From IMG/VR virus record IMGVR_UViG_3300045988_151382: a DNA stretch of 48,925 nt. The stretch is one strand, 5' to 3'. Of the stretch, positions 23,415 through 43,624 are shown in pieces (the first letter of the stretch is position 1; the number at the start of each line of letters is the position of its first letter). A program made the position numbers and the translations under genes. Below the pieces are notes generated by a model. The model saw only the letters and a list, made by a program, of their open reading frames with translations, was not told the origin of the DNA and made no database searches. Source of the stretch: a virus (lineage: Duplodnaviria; Heunggongvirae; Uroviricota; Caudoviricetes).

Positions 23415-23623
23415 GAAACTATCCATTCTTCAATGAATATCTCCAGTAATGTCAAGAGATACGCCGTCCCCAGCGCGGTTCCTACCGATATAGCTAAGAC
23501 AAACCTCAAAGATAACGAGGTGTCTTTCGCTTTTCTCCAGACGTAAGCGCCAGCTAGAAATACCAACAAATCTCTTATTGGAAGCGGAAACCAGAACAAA
23601 TCACTCGGCATAAGCACGATCAT
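23411..23623 (-). CDS. Small membrane protein
   Basis: 70 aa ORF with two hydrophobic segments. Confidence 0.4.
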   Translation of the reverse strand: MIVLMPSDLFWFPLPIRDLLVFLAGAYVWRKAKDTSLSLRFVLAISVGTALGTAYLLTLLEIFIEEWIVS

Positions 23624-23900
23624 CTTCCGCTGCTGATTTACATGCCGCAGTTACTGATATATTGATAACCGGTGCGCTAATCGTGATGGACGACGCTGTC
23701 GGTTGACGCGATATAACTGAACGATGGCTATCAATGAAGTCCACAATCTCATTCAGGCACTCTTTAGCTGCCTCATCGTGACTTTTTCCGTATGCTTCAT
23801 GGAGGACTTTCATCCTCATCATTGCTCCGTCACATATAGTCGAAAGCGCGTAAAGCACATCACTAACCGCCATTTCTTTTTTGGTGCTTGTCGAAGGCAT
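23601..23900 (-). CDS. Hypothetical protein
   Basis: 99 aa ORF preceded by terminator and SD. Confidence 0.4.
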   Translation of the reverse strand: MPSTSTKKEMAVSDVLYALSTICDGAMMRMKVLHEAYGKSHDEAAKECLNEIVDFIDSHRSVISRQPTASSITISAPVINISVTAACKSAAEDDRAYAE

Positions 23901-23925: not shown

Positions 23926-23951
23926 AAAAAAGCCCCGGCAATTGCCGAGGC
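23926..23951 (-). terminator. Rho-independent terminator (minus strand)
   Basis: Stem GCCTCGGC/GCCGGGGC with AATT loop followed by TTTTTT on the minus strand. Confidence 0.55.
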
Positions 23952-23974
23952 TCGTTGTTCGTTATCGTTACGGT

Positions 23975-24175
23975 TTAATGCTCGCGTCGTCCGGCGACAA
24001 CTTCGGATTTGTATTTCAGGTCGCCCAGCAAGAATTGCAGTTTAAGCATCTTTGCCGCCGTGTAGTTTCCTGATTCCACAACCTCTTTCATGAGGTCATA
24101 AACGGCCGCAACATCATCAGCCAGGAACTCTTTGCGTTGCTGCTCAGTCGCACGTTTGAAGGAAATACGCATCAC
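23975..24175 (-). CDS. Hypothetical protein
   Basis: 66 aa ORF overlapping upstream gene by 4 nt. Confidence 0.35.
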   Translation of the reverse strand: MMRISFKRATEQQRKEFLADDVAAVYDLMKEVVESGNYTAAKMLKLQFLLGDLKYKSEVVAGRREH

Positions 24176-24441
24176 TCATCATCTCCTGCCGCACATACAA
24201 CCTCACAAAAAACATCAGCGGAATGTTTCTTTTTGAATGAATGGCGCTCAAAACCGCACTCAATATCAGGCGCAAAAACATCCACCACATACGGTCTTTC
24301 AGAATGTTTGTTTTCCCAACGATAAACCGTAGTGACGTTGAAATGTTTTAACGCTTCACGGTACTCAACGCTGCCCGTCAGGTTTTTTGAGGTCAGGTAT
24401 TGCAGGAGGTTTTTTACTACTTCACGGTCTTGTACTTTCAT
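24172..24441 (-). CDS. Hypothetical protein, first gene after promoter cassette copy 1
   Basis: 89 aa ORF; ATG preceded by GGAG within conserved leader. Confidence 0.45.
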   Translation of the reverse strand: MKVQDREVVKNLLQYLTSKNLTGSVEYREALKHFNVTTVYRWENKHSERPYVVDVFAPDIECGFERHSFKKKHSADVFCEVVCAAGDDE

Positions 24442-24553
24442 CGGGTTATCTCCGGTTTAACCAGGGCGGGTATCGCTCGGTTTCGGGTATAACCATAGGA
24501 AATTTTTTCCCACCTGTAAAGCACTTTTTATATAAATATATAATTATATAATT
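24442..24553 (-). promoter_or_regulatory. Conserved promoter-plus-leader cassette, copy 1
   Basis: In gene orientation: AT-rich motif, TTTACA, 17-nt spacer, TATGGT, then a conserved ~50-nt leader ending GGAGATAACCCGATG; near-identical copies at 32944..33060 and 41984..42096. Confidence 0.55.
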
Positions 24554-25141
24554 CTATGCCACTTGCCAGAGAGCATCATGCAACTGGATACCTCCATTGC
24601 ACTGGTTGCCCCAGCCATGCCAACCATCAGGTAAATCACCGCGAGCAAACAGCTCAATACGAGGAACATCACCTAACAGCCTTACCAGCTTGTCACGAAC
24701 CACATCAGGCTTCCGAGAATGCTCCAGACGAGGCGATGTAAACGACTGAATGATCCCCGCATCAAGGCGGGTCGGCAATTTGCCTTTTACCGCAAACAAG
24801 CAATCTTCACTGTTTGCACGAGTCATATGCCCCATCCCCATCACCAGCTTATCTGGTTGTCGGCTACCACATTTGTTCCATGTGAAGCCCTTCATGGTCA
24901 TAAGCCTGAATCCCCATGCTTTCACCACCAGCAACGCTTCTTCTGGCTGAGTCGGAACCCACCACATGGCCAACAAACACGATTCAGGATTAGCAAGCTG
25001 CCAGACAGGAATACGAGCAATATCCTCAGCTTTCATCGTTGGATACTTAAAACCAGCTCCACGATTCCCATCCTTACACTTATCTTTGTATTCCCAGGGG
25101 GGATCTGCATAAATCAGATTAAACAATGCAATTGCCTCCAT
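24554..25141 (-). CDS. MT-A70 family DNA N6-adenine methyltransferase
   Basis: 195 aa; N-terminal YADPPWEY motif (DPPW catalytic motif of the MT-A70 family). Confidence 0.7.
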   Translation of the reverse strand: MEAIALFNLIYADPPWEYKDKCKDGNRGAGFKYPTMKAEDIARIPVWQLANPESCLLAMWWVPTQPEEALLVVKAWGFRLMTMKGFTWNKCGSRQPDKLVMGMGHMTRANSEDCLFAVKGKLPTRLDAGIIQSFTSPRLEHSRKPDVVRDKLVRLLGDVPRIELFARGDLPDGWHGWGNQCNGGIQLHDALWQVA

Positions 25142-25449
25142 GTTAGTTGTGCCTCCGGCGCTGATCTCCGGCAGTCATAACGCTGGCCAGCTCTACAGCA
25201 GACACAACGAAAAGGGCACTAACCAGACTGATTAATGCCCTTGCCTGTTGTGTGCCGGATATCGCCCGACAACGCTGTTTTGGTAACACGGCTACAGTTC
25301 CGTGCCGCTCCAGCTTTTACCCCTTTGCGGATAACAGGCCCTGCCTGTAACTTAGCCCCACGTTCGCCCGAAATGCGCACCAGGCACGCATAAAGATGAG
25401 CACGAAGGAAGTAACTCCACCGCGCTTATCTTTATGTGTGAGAGTGAAT

Positions 25450-25525
25450 TGGTGGCCCCTACCGGATTTGAACCGATGACCGTGCGATTATGAGTCGCCT
25501 GCTCTAACCACTGAGCTAAGGGGCC
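25450..25525 (-). tRNA. tRNA with CAU anticodon (Met or Ile2/lysidine type), CCA encoded
   Basis: Minus-strand sequence GGCCCCTTAGCTCAGTGGTTAGAGCAGGCGACTCATAATCGC...GGTTCAAATCC...AGGGGCCACCA; 7-bp acceptor stem, D-loop AGCTCAGTGGTTAGAGC, T-loop TTCAAAT. Confidence 0.8.
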
Positions 25526-25663
25526 ATATTTGATCTGTTTGTCTGGTGTGGCGCCGCGCACGAAAATCCCAGCCAATAAATTCAGGATTTTTGGGCGCGG
25601 CGGCATATCAGACAAACATGGTTGATGCGTGCGCCCATGAGAAAAGCGCATAGAATGTTGTAA

Positions 25664-25698
25664 CTATATATTTATATAATTATAGAAATATATATTAC
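25664..25698 (-). promoter_or_regulatory. AT-rich 17-bp-class motif upstream of the tRNA
   Basis: TATATATTTATATAATTATAGAAATATATAT; member of the dispersed ATTATAGATTTATATAA-like motif family. Confidence 0.4.
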
Positions 25699-25904
25699 TT
25701 TGGGCAGTTGATTTCCCATGCCCTGTTATGAGCCAGAATATCTTTCTTTGTCTGGCGGTCCATAACATTGATGTCGTGATCAGTCAGGTAGATGGGCTTT
25801 ACCCAATCACAGGCGGTATCAACCACCACCGGGACGCTTCCACGACTCCCGCAGCTCGCGATCAACATCGTCATCAGCCATATGGTTAACACTCTGCTGT
25901 ACAT
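25695..25904 (-). CDS. Outer-membrane spanin lipoprotein (Rz1-like)
   Basis: 69 aa; signal peptide ending in lipobox LIASC; overlaps the 3-prime end of the Rz-like gene. Confidence 0.6.
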   Translation of the reverse strand: MYSRVLTIWLMTMLIASCGSRGSVPVVVDTACDWVKPIYLTDHDINVMDRQTKKDILAHNRAWEINCPK

Positions 25905-27314: not shown

Positions 27315-27345
27315 AAAAAAAAAGCCCCGCCGAAAAAGGCAGGGC
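27315..27345 (-). terminator. Rho-independent terminator immediately upstream of the lysis cassette (minus strand)
   Basis: 8-bp stem GCCCTGCC/GGCGGGGC followed by nine T on the minus strand, then SD GAGGA and holin ATG. Confidence 0.6.
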
Positions 27346-27491
27346 TTCATAAAGCAACAAATTACGCGGTAATCGCTTAACGCAGTTTTACTACGTTAAA
27401 TGAAACACTACACCCAGTTACCACCTAAAACAAGGTTTCTTCATAAAAAAACCTTCAAAATGTGGTTGATCGATCAATAAAAAAACAATAC

Positions 27492-27768: not shown

Positions 27769-28182
27769 TCACTTCCCTTTCCCCTGAAGCATAGCGGCGC
27801 GGCAGGCGTTCCAGCCTGTAGCGTATGCAGCCGCTTTGCTGCTGCCTTCAACTGGCGCATCCTGCCAATACATTTCATCCGGCACTACCGGCGCTGGCAA
27901 GGCAGCGTGATAGTAGAGTGGCATAGTTTTGTACAGTGGTTCGCCAGGACTTCCGTCAACCTGATTCCATTCTTCAACCCAGGCATCAACAACCGCTTTG
28001 CTGGTTGATACATGTTCTTCTGAATCTACATTTTGTCCTGATATACAGAACATAACTGCCTCTGCTTCCAGCGATGCCAGAGCAATTTCATAAGCCCGAC
28101 GCTCAATATTGTCTCGGACGTCCAGGCTGCCTATGCGCTCTTTGATTTCTTTAATCAGTTCTTTGTCGGTAAAAGTAGTCAT
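27769..28182 (-). CDS. Small protein, member of 3-paralog family
   Basis: Starts MTTFTDKELIKEIKERIG. Confidence 0.45.
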   Translation of the reverse strand: MTTFTDKELIKEIKERIGSLDVRDNIERRAYEIALASLEAEAVMFCISGQNVDSEEHVSTSKAVVDAWVEEWNQVDGSPGEPLYKTMPLYYHAALPAPVVPDEMYWQDAPVEGSSKAAAYATGWNACRAAMLQGKGK

Positions 28183-28192
28183 GTGTTAGTCC

Positions 28193-28456
28193 TTATCCTG
28201 CTGTGCTTTCAACTGATGAGGGGAACAAAATCTTTTCATCAAACCCTGCATTCATATCATGGACAGCAACACACCAATCCATTGACGAACGATTATCAAG
28301 AGCCTCCATGATTTCATCCATGCGGCGCAGGTCATACAGGTAAATGCTTTTATCGCCAATGGTGTAAAAACCAATTTTTTTCGGTGATGGGCAGCGATCA
28401 AGAACGTCCTGTAATTCGTTCAACCATGCCCGTTCTTTTTTTGTTAAAGTTGCCAT
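28193..28456 (-). CDS. Small protein, member of 3-paralog family
   Basis: Starts MATLTKKERAWLNELQD at internal Met. Confidence 0.4.
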   Translation of the reverse strand: MATLTKKERAWLNELQDVLDRCPSPKKIGFYTIGDKSIYLYDLRRMDEIMEALDNRSSMDWCVAVHDMNAGFDEKILFPSSVESTAG

Positions 28457-28457
28457 A

Positions 28458-28952
28458 TCACTCTCCTTTGATGCGAATGCCAGCGGCGCGTGGCACATTA
28501 ACTTCCACGATGCGCACTGTTGGTTTGTACATCTCAATCTCTGTCAGCCAGTCAGCTCCTGTCATGCGCTTTTCCGCATCGCCATTAGTCCACTGAACCG
28601 GTACACCAATAGCCTTCATCGCGATTTCTATTTCCCCGGCAATGGCGCTTTTTCCGCAACCAGTAAAACCAGAAACAACGACAAGAACTTCACCTTTGGC
28701 TGGTTTTATTTCCCGTGCTTCCAGTTCTGCAATGCGCTTTTTGTCTGCTTCCCGTTCATCCAGTAGTGCCAGCACGGTTTCTGGTCCGGCCAGAAATTTG
28801 AAGGCGTTGAGCGCATCAATATCCACACCGTAATCTTTAAGTTCCTGTTCACTTAACAAATCATCATCAGCTGGCAACATTAACAGGCGTTCCATTGCTG
28901 GAATTGCACGTTCCGCCGCCTCACGCAGTGCCTGGTAATTAATTTCGCTCAT
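28458..28952 (-). CDS. Ea22-like lambdoid accessory protein
   Basis: N-terminal MSEINYQALREAAE motif recalled from lambdoid Ea22-like family; shares terminal blocks with the next two genes. Confidence 0.45.
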   Translation of the reverse strand: MSEINYQALREAAERAIPAMERLLMLPADDDLLSEQELKDYGVDIDALNAFKFLAGPETVLALLDEREADKKRIAELEAREIKPAKGEVLVVVSGFTGCGKSAIAGEIEIAMKAIGVPVQWTNGDAEKRMTGADWLTEIEMYKPTVRIVEVNVPRAAGIRIKGE

Positions 28953-29590
28953 TGGTTGCCTCCTTTGCGAAGCTGGGCAGCGAACCTATCAGCTGCATCC
29001 GCGCAAGCAGAAGCAACGGAATCAAAAAATGGATCATCTCCTGTATCGCGCATCGTCAAAGCGAATGCCTCCACCCCTTGTGCCTGTATTTCTACAAGGG
29101 ATGCCTTAGATGTACTGCTTTTCGCCTCGCCTAATTCGTTATGAGCGATGTTCGCTATACATGCGATGTCTATATCTGGATGATTAATTGGGCAATGGCT
29201 AAGAATTGCCTCAAGTGCTGCTTTTTTGCTTTGGCATTCCGCCACCAGCGCCCCGCAATTGCTTTCATATTCGGCAATACGCTGTTTAGCAGCCTCCAGC
29301 TCAACACGCAGCTTCTCAAGCGTTAGAGCCATCTCCATGTTCTCGTCCAGCAGTTCAATCACATCAGGATCGCTATCATCAACTACTGTTATGCGCGATT
29401 TTTTGTAATGCTCGTCAGCATAAGTTCGTCCAGTTTTGAAGCATCCGTCGTCCTCCATGCCGGAACAGGCATAAACGACATGTGATCCAGATATGCGCTG
29501 CATTGACATTTCCTCGCCACAAACAGAGCATTTAGGCGCTGGTTTCGGTGAAAAACGTTCACGTAACGTATGATAGTAAAGCTCGCTCAC
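28949..29590 (-). CDS. Ea22-like protein with Cys-rich zinc-ribbon-like segment
   Basis: 213 aa; CSVCGEE...YACSG..GC cysteines; C-terminal AAQLRKGGNQ shared with 29587..30396. Confidence 0.4.
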   Translation of the reverse strand: MSELYYHTLRERFSPKPAPKCSVCGEEMSMQRISGSHVVYACSGMEDDGCFKTGRTYADEHYKKSRITVVDDSDPDVIELLDENMEMALTLEKLRVELEAAKQRIAEYESNCGALVAECQSKKAALEAILSHCPINHPDIDIACIANIAHNELGEAKSSTSKASLVEIQAQGVEAFALTMRDTGDDPFFDSVASACADAADRFAAQLRKGGNQ

Positions 29591-30396
29591 TGGCTGCCTC
29601 CTTTGCGAAGCTGTTCAGCGATATCTTCGAGAACGCCATCAGAGAATGAGCGGTCAAAATCGCCTTCCGGCGCATTAGCCATAAACTCAGTAGAGGTAAG
29701 AATCATCCGGGCAATATCCGCGGCGTTCTTCGCAGTATCATCAATAAAACCAGCTTCCCAGGCAGCCAGCATTCTGTTCGCCACAAAGTAAGCTCCCTCC
29801 TTGCGTGCTTCAGTCTTCACTTCATCCAGGAAAGCATCGGTGGCTGGGGTTTCGACATTAGGTCGAAGCTCATAATCACAAACTCTTTCAATCCATGGTG
29901 ATACTCTGTCGCATTTCCTCTTCTTGCGTTCACCGACCTTGGTTGCCTGCTGAATAATTACCCCCCAGCAAATGCTTTCGACCTCTTCGCTCCATCCATC
30001 GCAAGCATCGCCTCTATAGTCGTCAATTGCAGCCTCAGCAGCAGCGATAGCCTCCTCAGCAGTTTTGTGACACTCGAAACTAAATTCAGAGCCATATGAG
30101 AAATACATAGCCCCGGCCTTAAGCCCCGCATTCTCCGCCACCAGCGCCGCGAGATTAGTCTCAAGCTCTGCAATTCGACACATAGCATCAATATTTGTGT
30201 CCTCCAGCCGCTTAATTTCATCCAGAAGCGCCAGCACAATATGTGGCGTTATCAAGGACTCAAATTCGGCAACAGCTTGCTCGCCTCGCTTGTAATTCTT
30301 AATCCCACCTAAATTTTTCGCGTTCTGTGCCGCCTCACGCAGTGCCTGGTAATTAATTTCGCTCACTGGTTGCCTCCTGAATACGCTTAAACTCAA
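29587..30396 (-). CDS. Ea22-like protein
   Basis: 269 aa; contains SEINYQALREAAQ and C-terminal EQLRKGGSQ. Confidence 0.45.
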   Translation of the reverse strand: MSLSVFRRQPVSEINYQALREAAQNAKNLGGIKNYKRGEQAVAEFESLITPHIVLALLDEIKRLEDTNIDAMCRIAELETNLAALVAENAGLKAGAMYFSYGSEFSFECHKTAEEAIAAAEAAIDDYRGDACDGWSEEVESICWGVIIQQATKVGERKKRKCDRVSPWIERVCDYELRPNVETPATDAFLDEVKTEARKEGAYFVANRMLAAWEAGFIDDTAKNAADIARMILTSTEFMANAPEGDFDRSFSDGVLEDIAEQLRKGGSQ

Positions 30397-30979
30397 TTAC
30401 CCATACCCACGGGTTAGATAGCCAGTTCTCTTGCCCGTAAATACCGCGCCAGATATCACCAAAGCCAACGCGATAAACCGCTTCCGGCGGTGTAATCTTG
30501 TACGTCGCCGGAGATGCACCTTCCGCTTTAGCATCTGCCTCGCTCATGTCATGTAGCCGTTCCACACGCACGTCGGTTATTTCCAACAGAATACGGCTGG
30601 CCCAACGTGGCATGTGAATTGATGGGGTCCAACCCTCAGCTGGCTTGCTACTATCTGAGTAATCAGCCTTGTAATCACACAGTTCAGAAGCCAGAGAGAC
30701 ACCATCTTTGATTTCCTGAATGACATCGTTATCCAGCCAAAAAGCGTTGAATGTTTCACGTACCCATATGCGATCACCAACGTTACCGAACGGGCATAAA
30801 CCATGTTCAGGTGCATCCATAACGTGGGTATAGACACCATTGCGTTTCTTTGTCGGTTTACGGATAACCAGGCAGTTATCGGCCCTGACATTTTTTACAG
30901 GTCGGCGAGTCTGCGTCTTCCTTCCTTCGAGGATGGCCCTAACCATATCGTCATTAAAAACAACACCACGTTCTTTCAT
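30353..30979 (-). CDS. Conserved prophage protein (possible ASCH/PUA-like fold)
   Basis: 208 aa; N-terminal DDMVRAILEGRKTQTRR motif recalled from prophage hypothetical proteins; assignment uncertain. Confidence 0.3.
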   Translation of the reverse strand: MKERGVVFNDDMVRAILEGRKTQTRRPVKNVRADNCLVIRKPTKKRNGVYTHVMDAPEHGLCPFGNVGDRIWVRETFNAFWLDNDVIQEIKDGVSLASELCDYKADYSDSSKPAEGWTPSIHMPRWASRILLEITDVRVERLHDMSEADAKAEGASPATYKITPPEAVYRVGFGDIWRGIYGQENWLSNPWVWVIEFKRIQEATSERN

Positions 30980-31230: not shown

Positions 31231-31529
31231 TCCTCATCTGCAACGGGGGTGTTCCGCTCCAGCACCTTGTCCGCATCGGCGATCAGGTTTGACAGACTCT
31301 TGTCTGAAATCTTCGTTACCGGAGTCGTTGGTTGCTCAACCTGCCCGATAGGTTTTATCGTGCTCAAAAGGAGGCGACGGCGGGAAAGTGGTGCCCCACA
31401 ACGACGGCCATCTTCCTTGCGATATGTTTCTTTCGGACCAACACACCAGGTTGTCGGCGTTTCGCGCAACTTCACTCTTTTCTCACCATCATTGGTAATG
31501 ATTATTCCGGTATGGGTTTTGATGCTCAT
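31164..31529 (-). CDS. Hypothetical protein
   Basis: 121 aa ORF overlapping neighbours by 4 nt. Confidence 0.35.
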   Translation of the reverse strand: MSIKTHTGIIITNDGEKRVKLRETPTTWCVGPKETYRKEDGRRCGAPLSRRRLLLSTIKPIGQVEQPTTPVTKISDKSLSNLIADADKVLERNTPVADEEWWQDFRAAMLELQERRREELK

Positions 31530-31828
31530 GCCACAGCCCCTCTCAACGGCTTAACTTTGGCTAATAAGGTGTTAAACAACATGGAGTTAGGATTCATGCC
31601 AAATGGCAATTCCGGTTTAGCGGAGTAGTACAGGCAACCATTTATTTTCCTGGTTGTTATCTGTCCTTCGGCAACCATGCTTCTCAGTCTGCAACGCATA
31701 GAGTTCTGCGACACACCAATGTGTTCCGCGATTACGTCCACTTTTGAACATGGGTGATCGGTCAGGAAATTAATCACATCTTGGGGGTTAATAATTTTGC
31801 GTTTCATTGTCGAGGCCTCCTTATACAT
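31526..31828 (-). CDS. Putative DNA-binding protein (winged-helix-like)
   Basis: 100 aa; segment VIAEHIGVSQNSMRCRLRSMVAEGQI resembles an HTH; preceded by AT-rich motif and AAGGAGG SD. Confidence 0.4.
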   Translation of the reverse strand: MYKEASTMKRKIINPQDVINFLTDHPCSKVDVIAEHIGVSQNSMRCRLRSMVAEGQITTRKINGCLYYSAKPELPFGMNPNSMLFNTLLAKVKPLRGAVA

Positions 31829-31884
31829 TTATATAAATATATAATTCTATATACAGCGGGAGACATCCCGCCGTAGACTTACTG

Positions 31885-32943
31885 TCAGGCTTTCAATAGC
31901 GATTCTTTCAGATATCGGGCATCAGCCAGGGCGTTTGGAGTAATCTTGCGAACCCATGCATTACGGGTTGGACTCCACTTAAAGGCGCGTGATTTAAGCA
32001 GCGAACGAATGTTTGCCTCTGGTTTGCCAGGGAAATAAAACAGGATACGGTTATCCTCTGGATCTATCTCCATAGAAAAGCCGTCGTATTCTTCGCGCTG
32101 TGCTCCTGTTACAGACTTGACCGATTCAAGCTCCTTAATACGGCTCTGTAGTCGTTTGATTTCGGCATTATTGTTACTCAGTGAGTATGAAGGGAAGCCA
32201 ATGTGCCCACAGAAATCTCCGGCGAGTAACCCTTTGGCTTCGCTTTCAGTAAACTCAAGGTCAATTAATGCGGAAAGCTGCTGTAATTGGTCTTTTTTGT
32301 ATTTGCGAATAGCCTTATTTGCGGCCTTCATTTTGATGTGTGACTTCATGCAGCCTTGCAGCTTACGAAGCAACTTAAATAGCGCATCAGGATCATCAGA
32401 CGAAACTCCATTACGGCCGACACCTGCGGCTTTGCTTTCGTAGTACGATGCTCTGCTTTCACACTCAACAAACGATTTTCTGAATAACGCATCAGCTTTA
32501 GACAAACGGCGGCGATGGCCTTTCGCGCTATAATGGTCAACTAAAATCGGCTGGCCTAACGGGATCACATCCAACAGTTCATGCGCTCGCTTATGCGCCA
32601 CCGCACCTTCTTTTCTGGCTTTTTCTGCACGAGCAATATATCGGGCAAGACGCGCGTTCTGGCGTTCCTGATAGGTATTTACGTAATCATCTCCGCGCTG
32701 CTGCTGTTCAAGCCATGCTTTGCGCAGCTTTTCTGTTACGTCTACCAACTCTGCAGGGATACAACCTGTTTGGGATTCATAAGAGTGACCATCCTCATAA
32801 AGACGTCCATCGTCTTCAACAACGAAAAAGGTTTCGTGCTCATCGCTTTTGACCATACGGCCATTAACATGACGTAATCTATAGCCAGTATCAGTGCTCA
32901 ACAGGCTGTTAGGGTTGTTGATCCAGTCAGAAATAATTACTTG
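31885..32943 (-). CDS. DUF3560-like protein
   Basis: Start at internal ATG 32943 (MNKQVIISD) directly after leader cassette; motifs PLGQPILVDH, SSDDPDAL, MKAANKAIRK, GFPSYSLSN recalled from DUF3560. Confidence 0.5.
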   Translation of the reverse strand, partial: QVIISDWINNPNSLLSTDTGYRLRHVNGRMVKSDEHETFFVVEDDGRLYEDGHSYESQTGCIPAELVDVTEKLRKAWLEQQQRGDDYVNTYQERQNARLARYIARAEKARKEGAVAHKRAHELLDVIPLGQPILVDHYSAKGHRRRLSKADALFRKSFVECESRASYYESKAAGVGRNGVSSDDPDALFKLLRKLQGCMKSHIKMKAANKAIRKYKKDQLQQLSALIDLEFTESEAKGLLAGDFCGHIGFPSYSLSNNNAEIKRLQSRIKELESVKSVTGAQREEYDGFSMEIDPEDNRILFYFPGKPEANIRSLLKSRAFKWSPTRNAWVRKITPNALADARYLKESLLKA

Positions 32944-33060
32944 TTTATTCATCAGATTTCTCCGGTTTAACCAGGGCGGGTATCGCTCGGTTTTGGGTAT
33001 AACCTTAGGAAATTTTTTCCCACCTGTAAAGCACTTTTTATATAAATCTATAATTATATA
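32944..33060 (-). promoter_or_regulatory. Conserved promoter-plus-leader cassette, copy 2 (immediately downstream of Q-like gene)
   Basis: Same architecture and about 90 percent identity to copies at 24442..24553 and 41984..42096. Confidence 0.55.
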
Positions 33061-33122
33061 TTTATAGATTTTCCGATATTCCCGGTGCCTACAAATCACC
33101 AAAACAGCTCAAAATGACACTT

Positions 33123-33500
33123 TCATTCTCTTCTCTTTTTCAAGTAGTCGACAACATACGCCCTGGCTTTTGCCAGCTTCCGGCGATACTGTCTGAGACT
33201 AAGAGAAAGGGCGTGGGCTTTATCAATATGCGGTGCATTTATGTCGAGGCCCCGAATCTCCCACGCCCCGTATTCAATTCGGACAACCAGCGCCGCAGTC
33301 TCATCAACTACCGTGAGGGCCGTCACCGCTCCCTCGATACTGGTTTCCAGTGAGTCATTTGGTGCGCCGCCCCCTCCGGTAAACTGGCAACGCGTAACCA
33401 TCATCATTTCTAACATCGACGCGAAACCGCTACGGGCGTTGCAGCCATTGCGCACCCACAGCGCCCATAGCTCAAACAAGCTATCCAGATCGCGTCTCAC
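33123..33500 (-). CDS. Putative antitermination protein Q (82/QuuD-like family)
   Basis: 125 aa; N-terminal RRDLDSLFELWALW resembles the RD..LE.WGAW start recalled for 82-type Q; lies directly upstream of a promoter cassette. Confidence 0.4.
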   Translation of the reverse strand: MRRDLDSLFELWALWVRNGCNARSGFASMLEMMMVTRCQFTGGGGAPNDSLETSIEGAVTALTVVDETAALVVRIEYGAWEIRGLDINAPHIDKAHALSLSLRQYRRKLAKARAYVVDYLKKRRE

Positions 33501-35489: not shown

Positions 35490-35612
35490 AAACCACGATT
35501 TGTGGTATTAAAACCACAAATCGTGAGTTTTTCAATGGAAAAACAAAAAATAACCTTCTATTTGTGGTCTACCTCTCGTCTTGCCGTGTGAAAACCACTA
35601 AATGTGGTAATG
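35490..35612. promoter_or_regulatory. Immunity operator/promoter region with three ACCAC-N5-GTGGT operators plus a half-site
   Basis: ACCACGATTTGTGGT, ACCACAAATCGTGAG and ACCACTAAATGTGGT between divergent repressor and cro-like genes; TATAAAT -10-like element near 35612. Confidence 0.65.
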
Positions 35613-35645: not shown

Positions 35646-36308
35646 ATGAAAAGCAACGACGAGAACATCAAGAAAGAAATAGGTCTGCGCATTCAGACTC
35701 TACGGAAACAATCCGGCATGACTGCCGGAGATCTCCAGCAAGTCACTGGAATAGGCTTAAGCACCTTGCAGAACTATGAGGCCGGATTAAGACAACCATC
35801 TATACCTGCCATCAAGAAAATCGCGCACGCCCTGAAAGCATCAGCGCCTTATATCGCGTGCTTAACAGATAACCCGTTCCCACCCCAGAATACTAACGCT
35901 CCTGTTATTCCTGGGCTTGTAGCTATAAAAAATGACATAGCATCGCACGCCGGAGAAAAGCCAGTGCTGGCGATAGAACAGGAGATTCTACGAAGCAAGA
36001 ACATCAACCCATCGTCTCTGTCTGTTCTCCAGAGCAACGATGAGCTAAAGCTAATGTCACCAACAATATCCCCTGGCTCCCAAGTCCTGATTAATACAGA
36101 CGATACAGAGGTTCATGAGGGGATCTATGCCCTTGAAGACAGAAATGGCCTGGTTGTTTTGAGGCACTGTAGAGTCATACCGGGTGACAATGCTGTTATG
36201 CTGTCAACCGAAAGGGATGCTGAAATAAACACTAAGCATCTGAATAACGAGGAATTTAAGCGTTATAAAGTTCTTGGCCGCGTAGTTAGTGTTGTCAACT
36301 GGTTATGA
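35646..36308 (+). CDS. CI-like repressor (HTH_XRE N-terminus, LexA/S24-like C-terminal domain)
   Basis: 220 aa; N-terminal IGLRIQTLRKQSGMTAGDLQQVTGIGLSTLQNYEAG HTH; C-terminal beta-rich domain. Confidence 0.7.
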   Translation: MKSNDENIKKEIGLRIQTLRKQSGMTAGDLQQVTGIGLSTLQNYEAGLRQPSIPAIKKIAHALKASAPYIACLTDNPFPPQNTNAPVIPGLVAIKNDIASHAGEKPVLAIEQEILRSKNINPSSLSVLQSNDELKLMSPTISPGSQVLINTDDTEVHEGIYALEDRNGLVVLRHCRVIPGDNAVMLSTERDAEINTKHLNNEEFKRYKVLGRVVSVVNWL

Positions 36309-36784: not shown

Positions 36785-36905
36785 GGCTAACGCCCGCTTA
36801 TATGATTATAGATTTATATAATTATATAAAACACTTTTCATCCGCCAAAAAGTTGGTTATGCTTACCTCATTCTATAAATATAGATTTATAGAATTATAT
36901 AATCA
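36785..36905 (+). promoter_or_regulatory. AT-rich repeat block upstream of the partition genes
   Basis: Two copies of the TATAGATTTATA(T/G)AATTATATAA-class motif. Confidence 0.5.
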
Positions 36906-36925
36906 AACACATGGAGTCTCGACAA

Positions 36926-37579
36926 ATGACTATATCTGTAGGTATTTTCAACGGAAAAGGCGGCGTAACCAAATCAACCATTGCTCGTGCTTTAGCAGTT
37001 GCTTATGCAAAGGCTGGCTGGAATGTATGCCTGATCGATATGGATGTGCTTAACGGAACGGTAACGCGTTGGGTACAACGCAGAATGGCCAACAATATCG
37101 AACCTGCAATCGCGGCGCAGCCGTGCGGCACGCCATCACAAGTCCAGAAAATCATCGAATCAGAAGTATACGACCTGGTTATCGTTGATGGCGGTGCCTA
37201 CGCATCTGAATCAGTACCGAAGCTCTCTGAATTTCTGGATATGGTTATTTTGCCAACCAGATTCTCTACCGATGACCTGGAAACCACCGTTAACACAGCT
37301 CACGGCATCGTTAAAAAGGGTGTACCAATCAAGAAAATTTGCATGGTGTTTTCCGGCGCGGCTGAAAACGAAGCTGACTATATTGAAGCCCAAGAGTACC
37401 TGGCTAATACGCCATACTTTGTTGTCGATAAGTACATTCCCCACAAGCCAGCTCTGAGCAAAGCTCAGGATAAAGGCTTAAGCCTCATTGAGTGCTCATA
37501 CGTTGCGCCACGCAAAAAAGCAGACGACGTTATTCAGGGGATTATCAACCAGCTTGAGGCTCTGACTACTGCCGCGTAA
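36926..37579 (+). CDS. ParA-like partition ATPase (short type)
   Basis: Deviant Walker A GKGGVTKST near the N-terminus when started at 36926 (ORF track starts 36911). Confidence 0.7.
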   Translation: MTISVGIFNGKGGVTKSTIARALAVAYAKAGWNVCLIDMDVLNGTVTRWVQRRMANNIEPAIAAQPCGTPSQVQKIIESEVYDLVIVDGGAYASESVPKLSEFLDMVILPTRFSTDDLETTVNTAHGIVKKGVPIKKICMVFSGAAENEADYIEAQEYLANTPYFVVDKYIPHKPALSKAQDKGLSLIECSYVAPRKKADDVIQGIINQLEALTTAA

Positions 37580-37622
37580 TATATAATTATAGTTTTATAG
37601 ATTTATATAAGAGAGGATACAC

Positions 37623-37871
37623 ATGGCCGCACCATCAAAACCACCAAAGAAGAACAGCAAAGGCGTACCGCCATCGATCGAACAACCGCAGGTTTTCGAC
37701 CCGACTGAAACGCCAGCCAGAACCAAATCAGGTGGGGCACAAATGGCGTTTAACGTCGACCCTGAATTTAAACGCGAGTACAAAACGTTCGCCAGCTCAA
37801 TGGATATGTCATTGAAAGAAGTGCTAACAAAATCTTTTGAGTTACTCAAGGCTCAATACAACCAGAAGTAA
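37623..37871 (+). CDS. ParG-like ribbon-helix-helix partition protein
   Basis: 82 aa; disordered basic N-terminus and C-terminal RHH-like segment; follows the ParA-like gene. Confidence 0.55.
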   Translation: MAAPSKPPKKNSKGVPPSIEQPQVFDPTETPARTKSGGAQMAFNVDPEFKREYKTFASSMDMSLKEVLTKSFELLKAQYNQK

Positions 37872-38093: not shown

Positions 38094-38115
38094 AAAAAAG
38101 GCCCCCGAAGGGGCC
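38094..38115 (-). terminator. Rho-independent terminator (minus strand)
   Basis: Stem GGCCCC/GGGGCC with 4-nt loop followed by TTTTTT on the minus strand, just downstream of small ORF 38122..38244. Confidence 0.55.
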
Positions 38116-38121
38116 TAATCG

Positions 38122-38244
38122 CTACTTGCTGCTAATGTTTATCGTCACATTCAGAGCGTTATCAGTAATCTTCCAACCCTCTCCATGTGGCGTAAACAAA
38201 GCTCCAGTAACAACGATAAAAATACACATACAGTATTTTTTCAT
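38122..38244 (-). CDS. Small hydrophobic peptide (about 40 aa)
   Basis: MKKYCMCIFIVVTGALFTPHGEGWKITDNALNVTINISSK from internal Met of ORF 38122..38304; own terminator. Confidence 0.3.
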   Translation of the reverse strand: MKKYCMCIFIVVTGALFTPHGEGWKITDNALNVTINISSK

Positions 38245-38559
38245 TGTATGGCCCTTACAGGCCGTTTCACGGCATCCCCACCGACGAAAACAACGCGAGA
38301 GCAAGCACGGCTGCTTGTGCTTGCATGTACGGCAACGGAGAATCCTCCCCTAAAGTCGGTGCCCGGGTGCGAATCGGCGGGAAGGTCCACAGGTATTTTA
38401 CGATTATTTTAAGATTAGTAATAGGAAAGAAATTAAACGAAAAAACTCGTTTATTTTCACAAAATCAGTAACCTACCCACAATCTGTGAGTTTGCAGGCA
38501 CAACAAGAACCACAATTTTTTGAAGCATAATAGTGGACTATTATTACCTTTTGGGTAAA

Positions 38560-38840
38560 ATTAACTTGCTGCTTGTGCTTGCGTGGTTGTTTATACAACA
38601 ACGTAATGCTGAAAGGACCGCGAATCCGATCAGCACGAAAGAACCGTCCTCAATAGGGCGGTTTTTTTGTTTCTGCCTACCAATAAACCCACGCTATGTG
38701 GTTGTCTCTGTTAAAATCCCGCCGTATTGACATGAATGCGCCATTGGTGGACACTTTCCGAGCCGTAGCAAAATCTACGGTCGGGATTGGAACCCCGTAG
38801 ACACAATGGCGCATACCGCGTTAGCGGTTTTTTTATGCGT
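38560..38840 (+). ncRNA. Candidate regulatory RNA region upstream of the antirepressor operon; two intrinsic terminators
   Basis: Terminators at about 38644..38668 (ACCGTCCT/AGGGCGGT stem then T7) and 38815..38834 (ACCGC/GCGGT stem then T7); no ORF; repeated GATTGGAACC element. Confidence 0.45.
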
Positions 38841-39000
38841 AAAGCACTGCTACACCCAAATTATGGTGGGGCGTGCGGGGGAGTCGTAAGACTCGCCGGT
38901 TCGTCATTGTGTCCGGTAGTTCCAACCCTGCACGTCTCACCACCCAATGATTGGAACCTGACGGTGGTGAGTATCCTTAACCTTTAAGGGAATCATCACA

Positions 39001-39192
39001 ATGACAAACCTACCCCATGACTATTACGTCAACCTCGTAAAGATCCTTCTCAAGAAAGCCTCATACGCCGATAAATTCCGCCTGGCTGAAATCATCGAGC
39101 GCGAAGCTATGCGCATCGCCAGCAACGATAACGCTGTTTCTGTCGCAAAAATCTCCCTCGTAACCAAAGTAGTTATGGGAGGTGCAAAATGA
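39001..39192 (+). CDS. Small protein translationally coupled to antirepressor
   Basis: 63 aa ORF whose stop overlaps the ant ATG (ATGA). Confidence 0.4.
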   Translation: MTNLPHDYYVNLVKILLKKASYADKFRLAEIIEREAMRIASNDNAVSVAKISLVTKVVMGGAK

Positions 39193-40457
39193 AAACGCTT
39201 CCGACCGTTAACACCCTACAGCCTATCCTGCATAACCAAATCCCTGTCATTACTACCGAGTTACTGGCACAGCTTTACGGCGTATCTCCTGTACGCATTC
39301 GACAAAATCATCATGAGAATAAGGAACGCTTCATTGAAGGTAAGCACTACTTCAAAATTGAAGGTAACGAACTTCGAGAGTTAAAGCACAAAGTGACTCA
39401 AGATAATGATGTGAAGAACAAAAACTCTTTAAGAGATTCAGTTAATGACGCCCCCTCTAAAAGAGAGAGCGACGAGCACAGAGTAGTTTTAAACTACTCT
39501 GTTAACCACAAGGTAACTAAAAGTCACTCTGTGAAAATCGCCCGTAACGTTCGCTCCCTCATTCTCTGGACAGAACGCGGGGCTGCACGTCACGCTAAAA
39601 TGCTCGAAACCGATCAGGCATGGGATGTATTCGAACGGCTGGAAGACTGCTACTTCAACCAGAACGCGCAAACGGCCGCGACCGTAACCGTCTCACCAAA
39701 CAATGCTCGTGAGGTTGTCGATACGCTCAACGCTAAACCAATGTATTACGTTAAGGTGTGCAACAACGAGCCACTCACAACCTCAGCCGATGTTGCCCAA
39801 GCATTCAGCACCACAAACAATTCCATCGTTATGGCCATCGATGCGTTACGCATTCCTCGCACGGCTGCGGCGCGTCACTTCTTTAAAGAACAACGACCGC
39901 TGGAAGGAAGCGACCGCGAAATAACAATCTATCGCATGACAAAAGACGGATTTACCTTGCTCATGGAAAGTATCGACGGTCCAGGCGTGAAGGATATCAA
40001 GCTGGCCTACATTGAAGCCTTTAACGCTATCAGCAGCGTGTTAAAGGCAGAATACGAGCGAATGCTATACAACCGACTGTATCAGGAAACAAAGATTATC
40101 CGAACGGCAACAGAACATCATCGGCTATTAACGGAACCAAACTACCGCAAGACACTAATCAAAGAGTTTGACAAGGCGACGGAGAAAACTAAAGCGGCAC
40201 TAAATCTACCAACAATGACTAAAGATGATGTGATATCAGCCTTACTTCTTGATCTGCTCAGAAACGCCAGAGCACTTATCAGTTTTGACGAAAACCTGAA
40301 TCCTCAGCTCAAGCTACTACCACCGACAGGCAAAGTAGTCGACCAAGCAGATCACAACAGCATACTCAGCGTACTGGATGCAAACCTGCCAGCCAGGACA
40401 CTACAGGATCTGATAAAAACATGTGCTGATAAGCTGGCACAGAAAAGCAGACCATAA
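39189..40457 (+). CDS. Antirepressor (ORF6N/KilA-N-type N-terminal domain plus Ant-like C-terminal domain)
   Basis: 422 aa; N-terminal IPVITTELLAQLYGVSPVRIRQNHHENKERFIEGKHYFKIEG resembles ORF6N/Bro-N-type domains. Confidence 0.6.
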   Translation: MKTLPTVNTLQPILHNQIPVITTELLAQLYGVSPVRIRQNHHENKERFIEGKHYFKIEGNELRELKHKVTQDNDVKNKNSLRDSVNDAPSKRESDEHRVVLNYSVNHKVTKSHSVKIARNVRSLILWTERGAARHAKMLETDQAWDVFERLEDCYFNQNAQTAATVTVSPNNAREVVDTLNAKPMYYVKVCNNEPLTTSADVAQAFSTTNNSIVMAIDALRIPRTAAARHFFKEQRPLEGSDREITIYRMTKDGFTLLMESIDGPGVKDIKLAYIEAFNAISSVLKAEYERMLYNRLYQETKIIRTATEHHRLLTEPNYRKTLIKEFDKATEKTKAALNLPTMTKDDVISALLLDLLRNARALISFDENLNPQLKLLPPTGKVVDQADHNSILSVLDANLPARTLQDLIKTCADKLAQKSRP

Positions 40458-40495: not shown

Positions 40496-41197
40496 TCAAC
40501 ACCAGAGACTTTCTGAAAATCCTTTCGAATAGCGTCAGCATCACGCGCCAAGCCCATACTGGAACGTGTCGCCATATGACGAAAATGATCAACTGCCGGA
40601 AACAAAGAAATAATGGACCCAATAGCTTGCAGCAAACTTGCTTTTCTACGCATCATAATTCCACCATAACCGATAGCCACCCTTCAGACACAACCCCCCC
40701 CTCCCCCCATACAGGGTGCCCTTTACCGGAGTTCCGGCCCCTTCTCAAAAGCATCAAAAAAGCTCGAGATCGAGTACCGGAACTCATGCCACCAGATAGC
40801 TCCACATCGTTTCCAATGCTTCGCCGCCGTGTGCGCCCTGTGGCCCACAATCATGCCATTGGTCGTCTGATATACCTTCTTCTGCTCATTGAGCACAGGC
40901 GAGTTGTCGCACTCCTGCCTTTCTCAGACTCGACTTAGTTTAGATCGCTGTTCCTGGCTTGCGTCAGCACACTTTCCCCTTGTACGCATACCCGCGCGCC
41001 ACTCCGTCCAAAAACACCGAACCCAACGAAGTGGCAAAGACAACGACGCGAGCGTGAGTCTGAAACAGGCACCAGTAAAAAAGGGGTTGCAGGCGCAAAA
41101 AGATTTGATTATCTTTAGACGCAAGAAAGCCGCCCCAATCAAGAGGTGTCTTTTTAAATCCAGCCTACCAAGCAAGATTTAAATTTCAGACTGAAAA

Positions 41198-41222
41198 CCG
41201 CCCGGCAAGGCGGTTTTTGTCT
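41198..41222 (+). terminator. Rho-independent terminator (plus strand)
   Basis: Stem AACCGCC/GGCGGTT with loop CGGCAA followed by TTTTTG. Confidence 0.5.
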
Positions 41223-41266: not shown

Positions 41267-41539
41267 TCATTTGATCTCTTGTTCCAATTCTGACGACACT
41301 TTAACCTTTTCCCATACAAGGGTTTGCAGCCTTAACAGAATCGCATCTTTATCAAGGTGTGAAAGATCCTTAACCATATCGTCAAATGACAGAACGCGAA
41401 TGGCCATCTCAATGACCCTCGGCGGCTCCCCCTTCTCATATCGCTTATATGTAGCCAACGATATCCCAAATTCTTCGGCGGCTCGCTCCTGCGTCCAGTT
41501 CATCCCACGACGCCATAATTTCAATTCATAACCCGTCAT
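41267..41539 (-). CDS. XRE-family HTH regulator
   Basis: Start at internal ATG 41539 preceded by GAGGAGGA; sequence LKLWRRGMNWTQERAAEEFGISLATYKRYE is a typical HTH. Confidence 0.6.
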   Translation of the reverse strand: MTGYELKLWRRGMNWTQERAAEEFGISLATYKRYEKGEPPRVIEMAIRVLSFDDMVKDLSHLDKDAILLRLQTLVWEKVKVSSELEQEIK

Positions 41540-41567
41540 AGCATCCTCCTCGCACAATATTAACACT

Positions 41568-41594
41568 CGCAAAGTGTCAAAATGACACTTTGCG
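41568..41594. promoter_or_regulatory. 27-bp perfect palindrome, probable operator
   Basis: CGCAAAGTGTCA-AAA-TGACACTTTGCG, about 30 nt upstream of the HTH gene start. Confidence 0.55.
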
Positions 41595-41602
41595 TATTGT
41601 GT

Positions 41603-41983
41603 TTACTTAACGAGGAATAAAAATGGTTTATTGTTCGGCGGTGTAATCGGAGCTGGCTCGCTTTTGCTCATGCGATCAGTGTACCAGGCCAGCTCCTTGT
41701 CAAAGTAAGCCTGATTAAAATAGGCAATGAATGTAGTTTCAAATCCATAACGACCGCTAATACGCAGCATCTGATTGCCGTTCTCTGTTTCCAGGTATAC
41801 CTGGGCACGTTCCTGATTCTCCTTCAGCCAGGTTAAAGCCTCATCGCACGAGGACACACGATACTCATCATCGTAGCCGTCATCGATGCGGCTTGAAGAA
41901 GAACGGCAAATCACGCCAACAGAACCAGCCAGGATAGTTTGAATTTTAAGGAAAGCGTTTTTGCGGATTTTAATCATGCTCAT
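41603..41983 (-). CDS. Hypothetical protein, first gene after promoter cassette copy 3
   Basis: 126 aa ORF. Confidence 0.4.
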   Translation of the reverse strand: MSMIKIRKNAFLKIQTILAGSVGVICRSSSSRIDDGYDDEYRVSSCDEALTWLKENQERAQVYLETENGNQMLRISGRYGFETTFIAYFNQAYFDKELAWYTDRMSKSEPAPITPPNNKPFLFLVK

Positions 41984-42096
41984 CGGGTTATCTCCGGTTT
42001 AACCAGGGCGGGTATCGCTCGGTTTCGGGCATAACACTAGGAAATATTTTCCCACCTGTAAAGCGCTTTTTATATAAATCTATAATTATATAATTC
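41984..42096 (-). promoter_or_regulatory. Conserved promoter-plus-leader cassette, copy 3
   Basis: Same architecture as the copies at 24442..24553 and 32944..33060. Confidence 0.55.
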
Positions 42097-42104
42097 CATG
42101 AGCA

Positions 42105-43037: not shown

Positions 43038-43328
43038 CTATTTTTGTGACTTTACTCCTGGCATATGGACTTCCCAGCGACGAATCCCCATAGCTGCGCA
43101 AAAATCAGCCACATAATTCAATCCCGCCCATTCGCGGATACCACCACGGGCTTTTTCAATGAAAACGGCAATCCCTTTTTTATTGAGAGCAAAAAGCCGC
43201 CAGCTTTTTGTCACTTCGTCCTGGGTAGCCACAACACAAGTGAAAGCTCCCATGCGATACAGGTCCAAGAACTCTTTGCGTGTTTTGCGTACAAGTTCCA
43301 TAACAAGCCTCATATTTGCATGTTTCAA
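43038..43328 (-). CDS. Hypothetical protein
   Basis: 96 aa ORF, coupled to upstream gene. Confidence 0.35.
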   Translation of the reverse strand: MKHANMRLVMELVRKTRKEFLDLYRMGAFTCVVATQDEVTKSWRLFALNKKGIAVFIEKARGGIREWAGLNYVADFCAAMGIRRWEVHMPGVKSQK

Positions 43329-43624
43329 ACATCTGTTTTGTTATCAATGAAGATTAACCCTAACCCAGCGAAGTAACACAGCAGCGCCCAGGCTGCATAC
43401 GGAATGCTGGATCTGGATGTGGACTCCTTTAACATCTGCCAGTTGCGAACATTGCGACTATCTTTTAAGCCTAGTTTTTTGGCCAACTGCGAGCCGCTCA
43501 TTCCGGTCAGGCCAATGACTGCCCGAACTTCTCCACATGTAGGAGATTCCCATTCATCCGCTTTTTTTAAACAAGCCGGATTCAACATTTTTAAAACAGT
43601 ATCTTTATCCATAACCATCTCCAT
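43325..43624 (-). CDS. Putative HTH protein with C-terminal transmembrane helix
   Basis: 99 aa; HTH-like GMSGSQLAKKLG and hydrophobic AAWALLCYFAGLGLIF. Confidence 0.4.
   Translation of the reverse strand: MEMVMDKDTVLKMLNPACLKKADEWESPTCGEVRAVIGLTGMSGSQLAKKLGLKDSRNVRNWQMLKESTSRSSIPYAAWALLCYFAGLGLIFIDNKTDV

Follow-up and report, generated by a model that had tools for sequence, protein, structure and literature searches.

Three copies of a probable KorC-controlled plasmid promoter module on a phage-plasmid

Introduction

Why should one replicon carry three nearly identical promoter-leader cassettes in front of genes that are unrelated to one another? This question is raised by the virus record IMGVR_UViG_3300045988_151382 (Caudoviricetes), whose 48,925 nucleotides (nt), hereafter called the window, contain such a cassette at 24442-24558 and two further copies of it, each ending in a Shine-Dalgarno (SD) sequence and the ATG of a gene. 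The initial annotation, made from the letters alone, placed the second copy behind a gene for a Q-like protein the position held by the late promoter pR′ and its Q-utilisation site (qut) in lambdoid phages, and suggested that the conserved leader could be a Q-utilisation or pause element or a structured 5′ untranslated region. The analysis described here favours another answer, namely that each copy is probably a plasmid-type, KorC-controlled kil-kor promoter module carried by a phage-plasmid.

Results

Structure of the cassettes

In a repeat search of the window the segments form one family, with 121-nt copies at 24438-24558, 32948-33068 and 41980-42100 that are 88-94% identical. A 33-nt leader core, for which the chance expectation is 0 matches, is identical in all three cassettes, and this bears out the earlier claim of near-identical segments before unrelated genes. 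In addition, a 26-nt promoter core occurs three times in the window when at most one mismatch is allowed, and a covariance model of the leader (described below) finds exactly the three cassette sites (E 6.5e-12 to 3.7e-11). An SD-region pattern scan of genome contigs gave chance matches only (Microcystis and similar genomes). The cassettes are about 115 bp long and all lie on the minus strand, which is the orientation of their genes, as direct repeats spaced 8.5 and 9.0 kb apart; each closes with GGAG, 7-8 nt and an ATG, located at 24439-24441, 32950-32952 and 41981-41983. The boundaries originally given were correct to about 10 nt, except that the start of copy 2 at 32944 reaches 9 nt into the coding sequence and that the AT-rich part had been drawn about 5 nt too short at its upstream end.

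From 5′ to 3′, the cassette consists of three to four 8-bp direct repeats of the form TTATAnAn, an A-tract with the sequence AAAAAG(T/C)GC, a TTTACA -35, a 17-bp spacer and a -10 of the form TAnnGT, followed by about 10 variable nt, the hairpin AACCG-a-GCG-AUACC-CGC-cc-UGGUU, AAACC, GGAG and ATG. Copy 1 (24442-24558) has its AT array at 24526-24556, the -35 at 24515-24520 and the -10, TATGGT, at 24492-24497. Copy 2 (32953-33068), 55 nt downstream of the Q-like gene, has TAAGGT as its -10, and copy 3 (41984-42100), directly after the higBA terminator (42132-42110), has TAGTGT. Thus the TTTACA and the 17-nt spacer of the initial annotation stand, whereas the TATGGT hexamer is true of copy 1 only; the AT-rich motif and a leader of about 50 nt ending in SD and ATG were found in every copy, as had been described. 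The genes behind the cassettes, all on the minus strand, encode proteins of 89 amino acids (aa; 24172-24441) and 66 aa (23975-24175) for copy 1, a 355-aa DUF3560 protein (31885-32952) for copy 2, and a 126-aa protein (41603-41983) together with a 101-aa XRE-type helix-turn-helix (HTH) protein (41267-41572) for copy 3.

The spacer palindrome and its relation to IncP promoters

Inspection of the spacer revealed an element that the first description had lacked. A 17-bp palindrome, T(A/G)GGAAA-N3-TTTCCTA, fills the spacer of all three cassettes, and the last T of its core (A/G)GGAAA-N3-TTTCCT is the first base of the -10. It is found again at a fourth promoter on the minus strand, TTGCCA-CAT-AGGAAAAGATTTCCT-ACCAT (43640-43665; palindrome 43660-43640), which drives the gene of a 99-aa HTH protein and has neither an AT array nor a hairpin leader. 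This layout of three cassettes plus one operator-only promoter is repeated in Salmonella L004 and Serratia L030. The arms of the palindrome vary by lineage (AGGAAA, AGGAAT, AGGACT, AGGGCA and AGGACA), with palindromy retained.

The same arrangement occurs in the klcA and kleA promoters of IncP-type plasmids, for which the comparison was made directly on pAKD34 and other plasmids of this type. The pAKD34 promoters read TTGACA-GC-TAGGGCAATTTGCCCTA-ATATT-(10 nt)-GAAGGCCGGGCAtgttGCtcAGGTCAAAACCGGAGAAnnTCCGATG, and the part downstream of ATATT is, piecewise, GAAGGCCGGGCA....GC..AGGTCAAAACCGGAGAA..TCCGATG, so that order, spacing and much of the leader match the cassette. The window cassettes have a like -35, the same 17-bp spacer and the same operator register, TAGG-N9-CCTA overlapping the -10. 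The leader of the Serratia cassette (TCGGCCGGGCATACCGCCAGGGCCAAACCGGAGATAACCCGATG) is clearly homologous to that of pAKD34, and the E. coli version more distantly so. When the 90-nt pAKD34 klcA promoter was used as query, 648 matching places were obtained in 367 plasmids, 335 of them conjugative. In an IncP-like plasmid of E. coli, such promoters precede DUF905, a kleA-like gene and an antirestriction gene resembling klcA, three in all; Marinobacter pHP-42 and a Methylomonas plasmid have four each, and pFSEC-01 has one. The slot abutting the -35 is taken in pAKD34 and L045 by the KorA operator OA (GTTTAGCTAAAC) and the KorB (ParB) operator OB (TTTAGCCGCTAAA); neither is present in the window, where AT arrays stand in that slot.

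A candidate for the cognate repressor is encoded on the same replicon. The 99-aa protein behind the fourth promoter (43325-43624, minus strand) gave 3,926 records by tblastn against plasmids, and the best non-self matches are annotated KorC proteins of IncP-type plasmids with 48-52% identity. By BLASTP it is 48% identical to KorC of pAKD34 (E 1.5e-15), and it is 34% identical to the syntenic Serratia gene product. On these similarities the protein is a KorC homologue, and we propose it as the repressor acting at the spacer palindrome; the fourth operator is presumed to serve autoregulation of its gene. Its end is overlapped by a 96-aa gene (43038-43328, minus strand) conserved in L026 and in Serratia p2 (motif VFVEKARGG.REW..L...A.FC), whose product may be a partner of the KorC-like repressor.

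AT arrays and the partition locus

Eight AT arrays, three in the cassettes and five elsewhere, are present in the window, all co-oriented with the local genes. Two of the five (36798-36838 and 36874-36903, plus strand) bracket the parA promoter (TTTTCA-17-TATGCT) and consist of 8-bp units identical to those of the cassettes. A third (37576-37610, plus strand) lies between parA and the gene for an 82-aa protein (37623-37871, plus strand), abutting the SD of the latter. The remaining two have no cassette promoter: one (31820-31855, minus strand) comes after a hairpin behind the DUF3560 gene and abuts the SD of a winged HTH (wHTH) gene (31526-31807), and the other (25658-25701, minus strand) is situated between the lysis genes and tRNA-Met. 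The type of repeat changes with lineage (TTATATAA; TTAAATAA/TTAAAGAA; AAGATATA/AATATATC; TAAATAAA/TATTTAAT), and within each genome the par locus and the cassettes share one type. Arrays of the window type, parA and a 77-aa homologue of the small protein are also found on the 27-kb conjugative cfr plasmid L003 (NZ_CP140467.1). Since this conjugative plasmid is absent from the matches of the Q-like protein search described below, the arrays appear to be carried along as part of the partition module.

A candidate for the factor binding these arrays is the 82-aa protein whose gene follows parA, the repeat type covarying with the par locus from lineage to lineage. Its model has a disordered N-terminal stretch of 40 residues followed by two helices (pLDDT 64), and the layout of ParG among type Ib centromere-binding proteins is a disordered N-terminal tail with a helix-helix C-terminus (PMC5016525). 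Its sole PDB profile match is the ribbon-helix-helix (RHH) protein SvtR, at a weak E of 0.34, and Foldseek was uninformative. We infer from layout and gene position that it may be a ParG-like RHH centromere-binding protein of type Ib.

Two other explanations of the arrays were discarded. T4-late-type TATAAATA promoters within an array are on the wrong strand and not conserved between copies. Binding elements of the Q21 direct-repeat type were ruled out because the arrays lie upstream of the -35 and accompany parA and the ParG-like gene on the 27-kb conjugative plasmid, which the Q-like search did not match.

Separately, an initiation context GGAG-n-CTCGACAA(A)ATG was seen right after AT arrays at parA (36900-36930), at the wHTH gene (31795-31825) and in the distant relative L028 (6360-6388 and 2990-3010). 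The array and this shared ribosome-binding context may form a second kind of conserved module.

On L003, positions 3304-3428 contain higBA followed by a cassette of which only the first half remains, IS26 having interrupted it within the operator. This arrangement is evidence suggestive of module exchange between the phage-plasmid and conjugative plasmids.

The leader hairpin

That the leader might be a structured 5′ untranslated region had been suggested at the outset, and comparative analysis substantiates it. RNAalifold was run on 24 distinct aligned leaders, drawn from seven kinds of replicon, and all six pairs of the predicted hairpin are kept in 24 of 24 leaders, with compensatory double changes at three of them (G-C to A-U, G-C to A-U and C-G to U-A). 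In a seven-pair version, 96.4% of the alignment cells are paired, as against 13-46% in slid controls, and the covariation score is 0.392 versus 0.270 after shuffling, with none of 500 shuffles reaching the observed value. One pair is G.U in 13 sequences and therefore fits an RNA of the sense strand and not a DNA palindrome. The hairpin starts a few nt from the predicted 5′ end of the transcript and finishes 5 nt before the SD. Folding of single leaders against shuffles gave modest z-scores of -1.8 to -2.5. Neither a gathering-level nor a meaningful E-value match fell on the leader in an Rfam 15 scan of the window, and the leader covariance model had no match in IncN R46, in VP882 or in relatives without the cassette hairpin.

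A 5′ stem-loop of this kind is most likely an element that stabilises the mRNA or sets its translation. It is also conceivable, though doubtful, that the hairpin is the functional heart of the cassette, a cis-acting RNA site through which a trans-acting factor, such as an RNA-binding protein of host or plasmid or a nut/put-like modifier of RNA polymerase, controls translation or elongation. Its geometry, a 5-nt loop that is often AUACC and a fixed distance to the SD have been kept from IncP plasmids to phage-plasmids through the compensatory changes described above, the leader is more conserved than the flanks, and Rfam does not contain it. However, the stem of seven pairs is short, the z-scores are modest, the loop varies (AUACC, AUAGU, ACAUC, AUGUU and AAGUC), and no boxA-like sequence occurs in the leader. 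Moreover, the cassette of a Yersinia metagenome-assembled genome (MAG), L040, has arrays, promoter and operator with a different, unstructured leader, so that the hairpin is not obligatory. Complementarity of the leader to the resident C4, isrK and ryfA RNAs was not above background. The duplexes with C4 (-28.5) and isrK (-30.5) are within about two standard deviations of the background of -19.6 ± 6.3, and the leader was rejected as an antisense or small-RNA target; the best non-self duplex match, near 41035, proved to have no real similarity on alignment.

The Q-like protein and the late genes

Do the cassettes instead serve late transcription, as their neighbourhood might suggest? In this alternative they would be Q-dependent promoters like pR′, at which a 125-aa protein encoded just upstream of copy 2 (33123-33500, minus strand) loads at a binding and pause element and permits read-through into lysis, packaging and structural genes. 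The protein has a sigma-region-4-like HTH, its overall fold resembles Q21 and AlpA, and the N-terminal segment, though strongly conserved, is modelled at low confidence, in line with a fold induced by a partner; "Q-like" is a fair label for it. At the sequence level it has no significant match to any Q family. VP882 Q (gp62), a 256-aa protein labelled anti-termination protein Q-like by annotation only, was ruled out as a homologue, and VP882 is absent among the tblastn matches listed for the Q-like protein.

The terminators of the window are in keeping with antitermination. A strong intrinsic terminator (23930-23953, minus strand), about 540 nt downstream of the copy 1 promoter, closes the cassette-1 unit and abuts the SD of gene 23601-23900, the lead-in to the packaging and structural genes. 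A second strong one (27321-27348, minus strand) stands before the holin gene (27301) and abuts its SD, and a further strong intrinsic terminator (25212-25242, minus strand) follows the tRNA. With a terminator set directly against the SD no promoter can fit in between, and transcription of the lysis and structural genes therefore needs read-through. In relatives from E. coli, Salmonella, Serratia and the Yersinia MAG, too, the Q-like gene is followed by a cassette at a distance of at most about 1 kb.

Other observations run against Q-dependence. The relatives were reached via tblastn with the 125-aa protein, and its matches are confined to non-mobilizable plasmids; the conjugative plasmids, on which homologous cassettes are common, are not among them. 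In L026, L028 and L043 the Q-like gene is not followed by a cassette, and cassette 3 drives a short operon converging on the ant region instead of late genes. The binding element of Q21 is a direct repeat, and it comes with a defined pause element (10.1101/651190), whereas the spacer element of the cassettes is a palindrome common to the korC-like promoter and no Q21-type direct repeat occurs in the cassette. Likewise, the initial transcribed region contains no conserved -10-like pause element (TAnnnT) and is the most variable part of the cassette across lineages. Given this, and given a promoter, operator and leader homologous to the KorC-regulated klcA and kleA promoters, the pR′/qut interpretation of the initial annotation was not upheld, and we regard Q-dependent late promoters as improbable.

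Variation among relatives and between copies

In Salmonella plasmids the three cassettes are of a second sequence type, and whatever sets them apart from the E. coli type is common to all three within a genome. Three 115-nt cassettes and an operator-only promoter by the syntenic HTH gene are present in Serratia marcescens p2, which has a Q-like protein of 51% identity, and contigs L028 and L043 begin inside a cassette of a third type. The cargo genes differ between lineages. At the position of cassette 3, after a toxin-antitoxin module, the distant relative L026 has a promoter (3520-3545) with the LexA-box-like sequence TACTGTTTAAAAACACAGTA, which suggests control by the SOS response in place of KorC.

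Any cassette of the window is 82-88% identical to any cassette of Salmonella L004, compared with 51-72% for the flanking 300 nt. Within either genome the cassettes are 90-95% identical, and orthologous copies are no closer than paralogous ones. Moreover, variants of the -10 (TATGGT/TAAGGT) and of the spacer between SD and ATG (GGAGATAACCCGATG/GGAGAAATCTGATG) occupy different copies in different plasmids. The higher identity of cassettes than of flanks, the lack of distinction between orthologues and paralogues and the swapping of variants indicate that the copies are both selected and homogenised by gene conversion, through which the cassettes evolve in concert.

Gene conversion raises a further alternative, that the cassette is primarily a portable recombination module like the promoter early stem-loop elements (PeSLs) of T4-type phages or the CUP elements of IncN plasmids, with regulation secondary and the AT arrays perhaps dispersed centromere sites as in N15. 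Gene blocks lying between two copies would then be shuffled or lost by homologous exchange. Such a role would fit the direct-repeat spacing, the movement of variants between copies, the unrelated and lineage-specific cargo and two metagenomic contigs that break inside a cassette, and rearrangements mediated by CUP in IncN plasmids (PMC5371602) and shuffling mediated by PeSL in T4-type phages (PMC2839356) are documented. However, operator symmetry, promoter spacing and hairpin pairing are kept across divergent replicons, which argues for selection on regulation, and most of the 74 E. coli plasmids considered below keep three places, the median. We therefore consider recombination as the primary role unlikely.

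The replicon

Bases 1-89 of the window are identical to 48837-48925, so that the window represents a circularly closed replicon of 48,836 bp. It is about 97% identical to the Yersinia phages vB_YpM_39, 41 and 44 and to E. coli plasmids of about 48 kb, one of which is the plasmid of ATCC 25922 (48,488 bp). Among 5,426 complete E. coli genomes, 74 contain the cassette, the median being three places per genome, and 213 of the 216 places are on plasmids. One of these E. coli plasmids has, in its RefSeq annotation, myovirus head, tail and lysis genes together with RepA, ParA, an XRE/S24 repressor and an ORF6N antirepressor, and an Rfam search of the window detected C4 and isrK RNAs, which correspond to an immI module of the P1 type. 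By its gene content, then, the window is a complete phage-plasmid, a myovirus with RepA and ParA. Yersinia phage HQ103 was dismissed as a relevant relative; it is an unrelated 32-kb phage.

Several other features of the replicon were recorded. The P1-type immI-like module extends over 38094-38947 and 39001-40457, with a ryfA-like RNA (38094-38390, minus strand), an isrK-like RNA (38762-38834) and a C4 antisense RNA (38859-38947) upstream of a small icd-like open reading frame and the ORF6N antirepressor gene. Three ACCAC-N5-6-GTGGT palindromes (35490-35612) between the divergent cI-like repressor gene (35646-36308) and the early operon are probable immunity operators, unrelated to the cassette operator; they are absent from the cassettes, and control of the cassettes by cI was ruled out on this ground. 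Between the antirepressor operon and the cassette-3 operon, a good terminator (41192-41219) lies about 80 nt beyond a promoter-like TTGCAG-17-TATCTT, and the segment (41085-41219, plus strand) is a candidate small RNA gene. The tRNA with anticodon CAT (25450-25525, minus strand) is called tRNA-Met by ARAGORN and Rfam, and its homologue in plasmid JE86-ST05_p3 is called tRNA-Ile by PGAP, possibly the lysidine-modified type. An ead/Ea22-like accessory block (27769-30979, minus strand), with internal repeats at 28915, 29553 and 30329, has 93-98% identity with lambdoid, Stx-converting and P1/D6-like phages.

Discussion

A KorC-controlled promoter module would work in the following manner. The KorC homologue would bind the palindrome and occlude RNA polymerase, and its own promoter carries the fourth operator. 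The ParG-like protein would bind the arrays abutting the -35 and act as co-repressor, as the KorB and KorA operators do in IncP. In the established plasmid-prophage the three units would be held low. Infection of a cell free of repressor, or titration of the repressors, would set off a burst from the promoters, parallel to the zygotic induction of klcA and kle in RP4. The klcA and kle operons of RP4 are repressed by KorA and KorC and show a 120-220-fold transient induction in transconjugants (PMC7314908); the kil genes do harm if left unrepressed, and the Kor proteins act as global repressors with autogenous control (PMC10871194). The burst in the phage-plasmid would express the 89-aa and 66-aa genes, the DUF3560 protein, and the 126-aa and HTH genes as establishment or accessory sets.

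Several points weigh against this scheme. The repressor assignments are predictions from homology and co-occurrence. No KorA or KorB homologue was found among the proteins compared, and the circuit differs from that of IncP. The cargo genes are without homology to Klc and Kle proteins (KlcA, KlcB, KleA, KleB, KleE and KleF were each tried and none was found). The RHH assignment of the 82-aa protein is weak on all three counts reported above, the model, the profile match and Foldseek. The -10 hexamers TATGGT, TAAGGT and TAGTGT are poorer than the IncP and Serratia versions, and promoter strength is accordingly uncertain. Finally, the KorC scheme explains neither why in the E. coli, Salmonella, Serratia and Yersinia relatives a cassette always stands just behind the Q-like gene nor why cassette 1 heads the path to the structural genes.

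A further conceivable reading is that the KorC establishment promoters have been co-opted as entry points of the late programme, the Q21/AlpA-like protein or another factor acting at the hairpin modifying RNA polymerase that starts at the cassettes. A new lysogen would then make a short establishment transcript limited by terminators, and lytic growth would yield long antiterminated transcripts of lysis and structural genes. Such co-option is speculative and rather improbable; if it were true, plasmid zygotic induction, control by a partition protein and phage antitermination would be fused in one 115-bp module, and the hairpin, which hundreds of conjugative plasmids also have, would represent a new class of cis-regulatory RNA.

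KorC control of the cassettes, which we consider probable, would have consequences beyond this replicon. A phage-plasmid myovirus would be run in part on the logic of broad-host-range conjugative plasmids, that is, a KorC operator with partition sites as co-operator, and the operator slot, exchanged for that of a different partition system, would be a clear modular swap between plasmids and phages. The module would also offer a handle on genes expressed in the first minutes after entry, including candidate anti-defence or establishment genes such as that of the DUF3560 protein. The covarying leader hairpin common to IncP-type plasmids and phage-plasmids, for its part, has no Rfam entry, and no account of its function was found. 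At the same time, a tempting misannotation of the cassettes as lambda-like pR′/qut is corrected.

Comparison with known systems

The lambdoid pR′/qut systems (Q21, Q-lambda and Q82) and P. aeruginosa AlpA resemble the window in having a small protein with a sigma-region-4-like domain encoded just upstream of the promoter and terminators before lysis or structural genes (10.1101/651190). Unlike them, the cassette lacks both a Q-binding direct repeat and a sigma-dependent pause element, and its family is widespread on conjugative plasmids outside the matches of the Q-like protein. The PeSLs of T4-type phages likewise place many copies of a promoter and stem-loop beside variable genes and bring about modular shuffling (PMC2839356, PMC4122927); they differ in that they belong to a lytic phage, where they act as early promoters and lack a repressor operator, and in being unrelated in sequence and far more numerous.

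The CUP repeats of IncN plasmids (R46/pKM101, the ArdK regulon) share with the cassettes a co-oriented series of promoter, repressor site, leader and SD heading establishment or antirestriction operons, and they are substrates for recombination (PMC5371602, PMC6289460). However, their promoter and operator are not homologous in sequence, ArdK is unrelated to the KorC-like protein, and the leader model does not match R46; CUP elements were accordingly rejected as sequence homologues, the resemblance to GGC-AAUACC-GCC being superficial only. As a separate observation, CUP leaders of R46 (L049), for example upstream of ardA at 24551-24640, contain the hairpin GGGAGGC-AAUACC-GCCACCC, whose inner stem and loop are like GGC-AUACC-GCC of KorC-type leaders; either convergence or very old homology may account for this.

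Centromere-binding proteins that double as global repressors include omega of pSM19035, and phage-plasmid N15 has dispersed SopB sites. KorB of RK2 and ParG (OF operator, TP228) are like the predicted system of the window in that repeats of the par promoter occur beside other promoters, and the candidate small protein has a disordered tail and helices (PMC5016525). The 8-bp repeat unit of the window, TTATAnAn, and the sequence of its small protein match none of the KorB, omega, ParG and SopB systems, and binding is a prediction only.

The closest parallel is the kil-kor regulon of IncP-1 plasmids (RK2/RP4). The window differs from it in being a temperate myovirus-plasmid that is not conjugative, in lacking KorA/KorB and OA/OB, and in having 8-bp AT direct-repeat arrays of a putative type Ib partition system (ParA plus a small protein) in the OA/OB slot. 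Its korC-like gene has its own operator-bearing promoter and is not in a klcA operon, its cargo is unrelated to klc and kle, and the leader of the E. coli type has A-U for G-C stem pairs and a 2-nt insertion. The two systems agree in the -35, the 17-bp spacer palindrome overlapping the -10, the leader hairpin and the SD-ATG arrangement. They agree also in placing several near-identical copies per replicon before unrelated small genes, in encoding a KorC homologue on the same replicon, and in having a partition-protein site, predicted in the case of the window, that abuts the -35.

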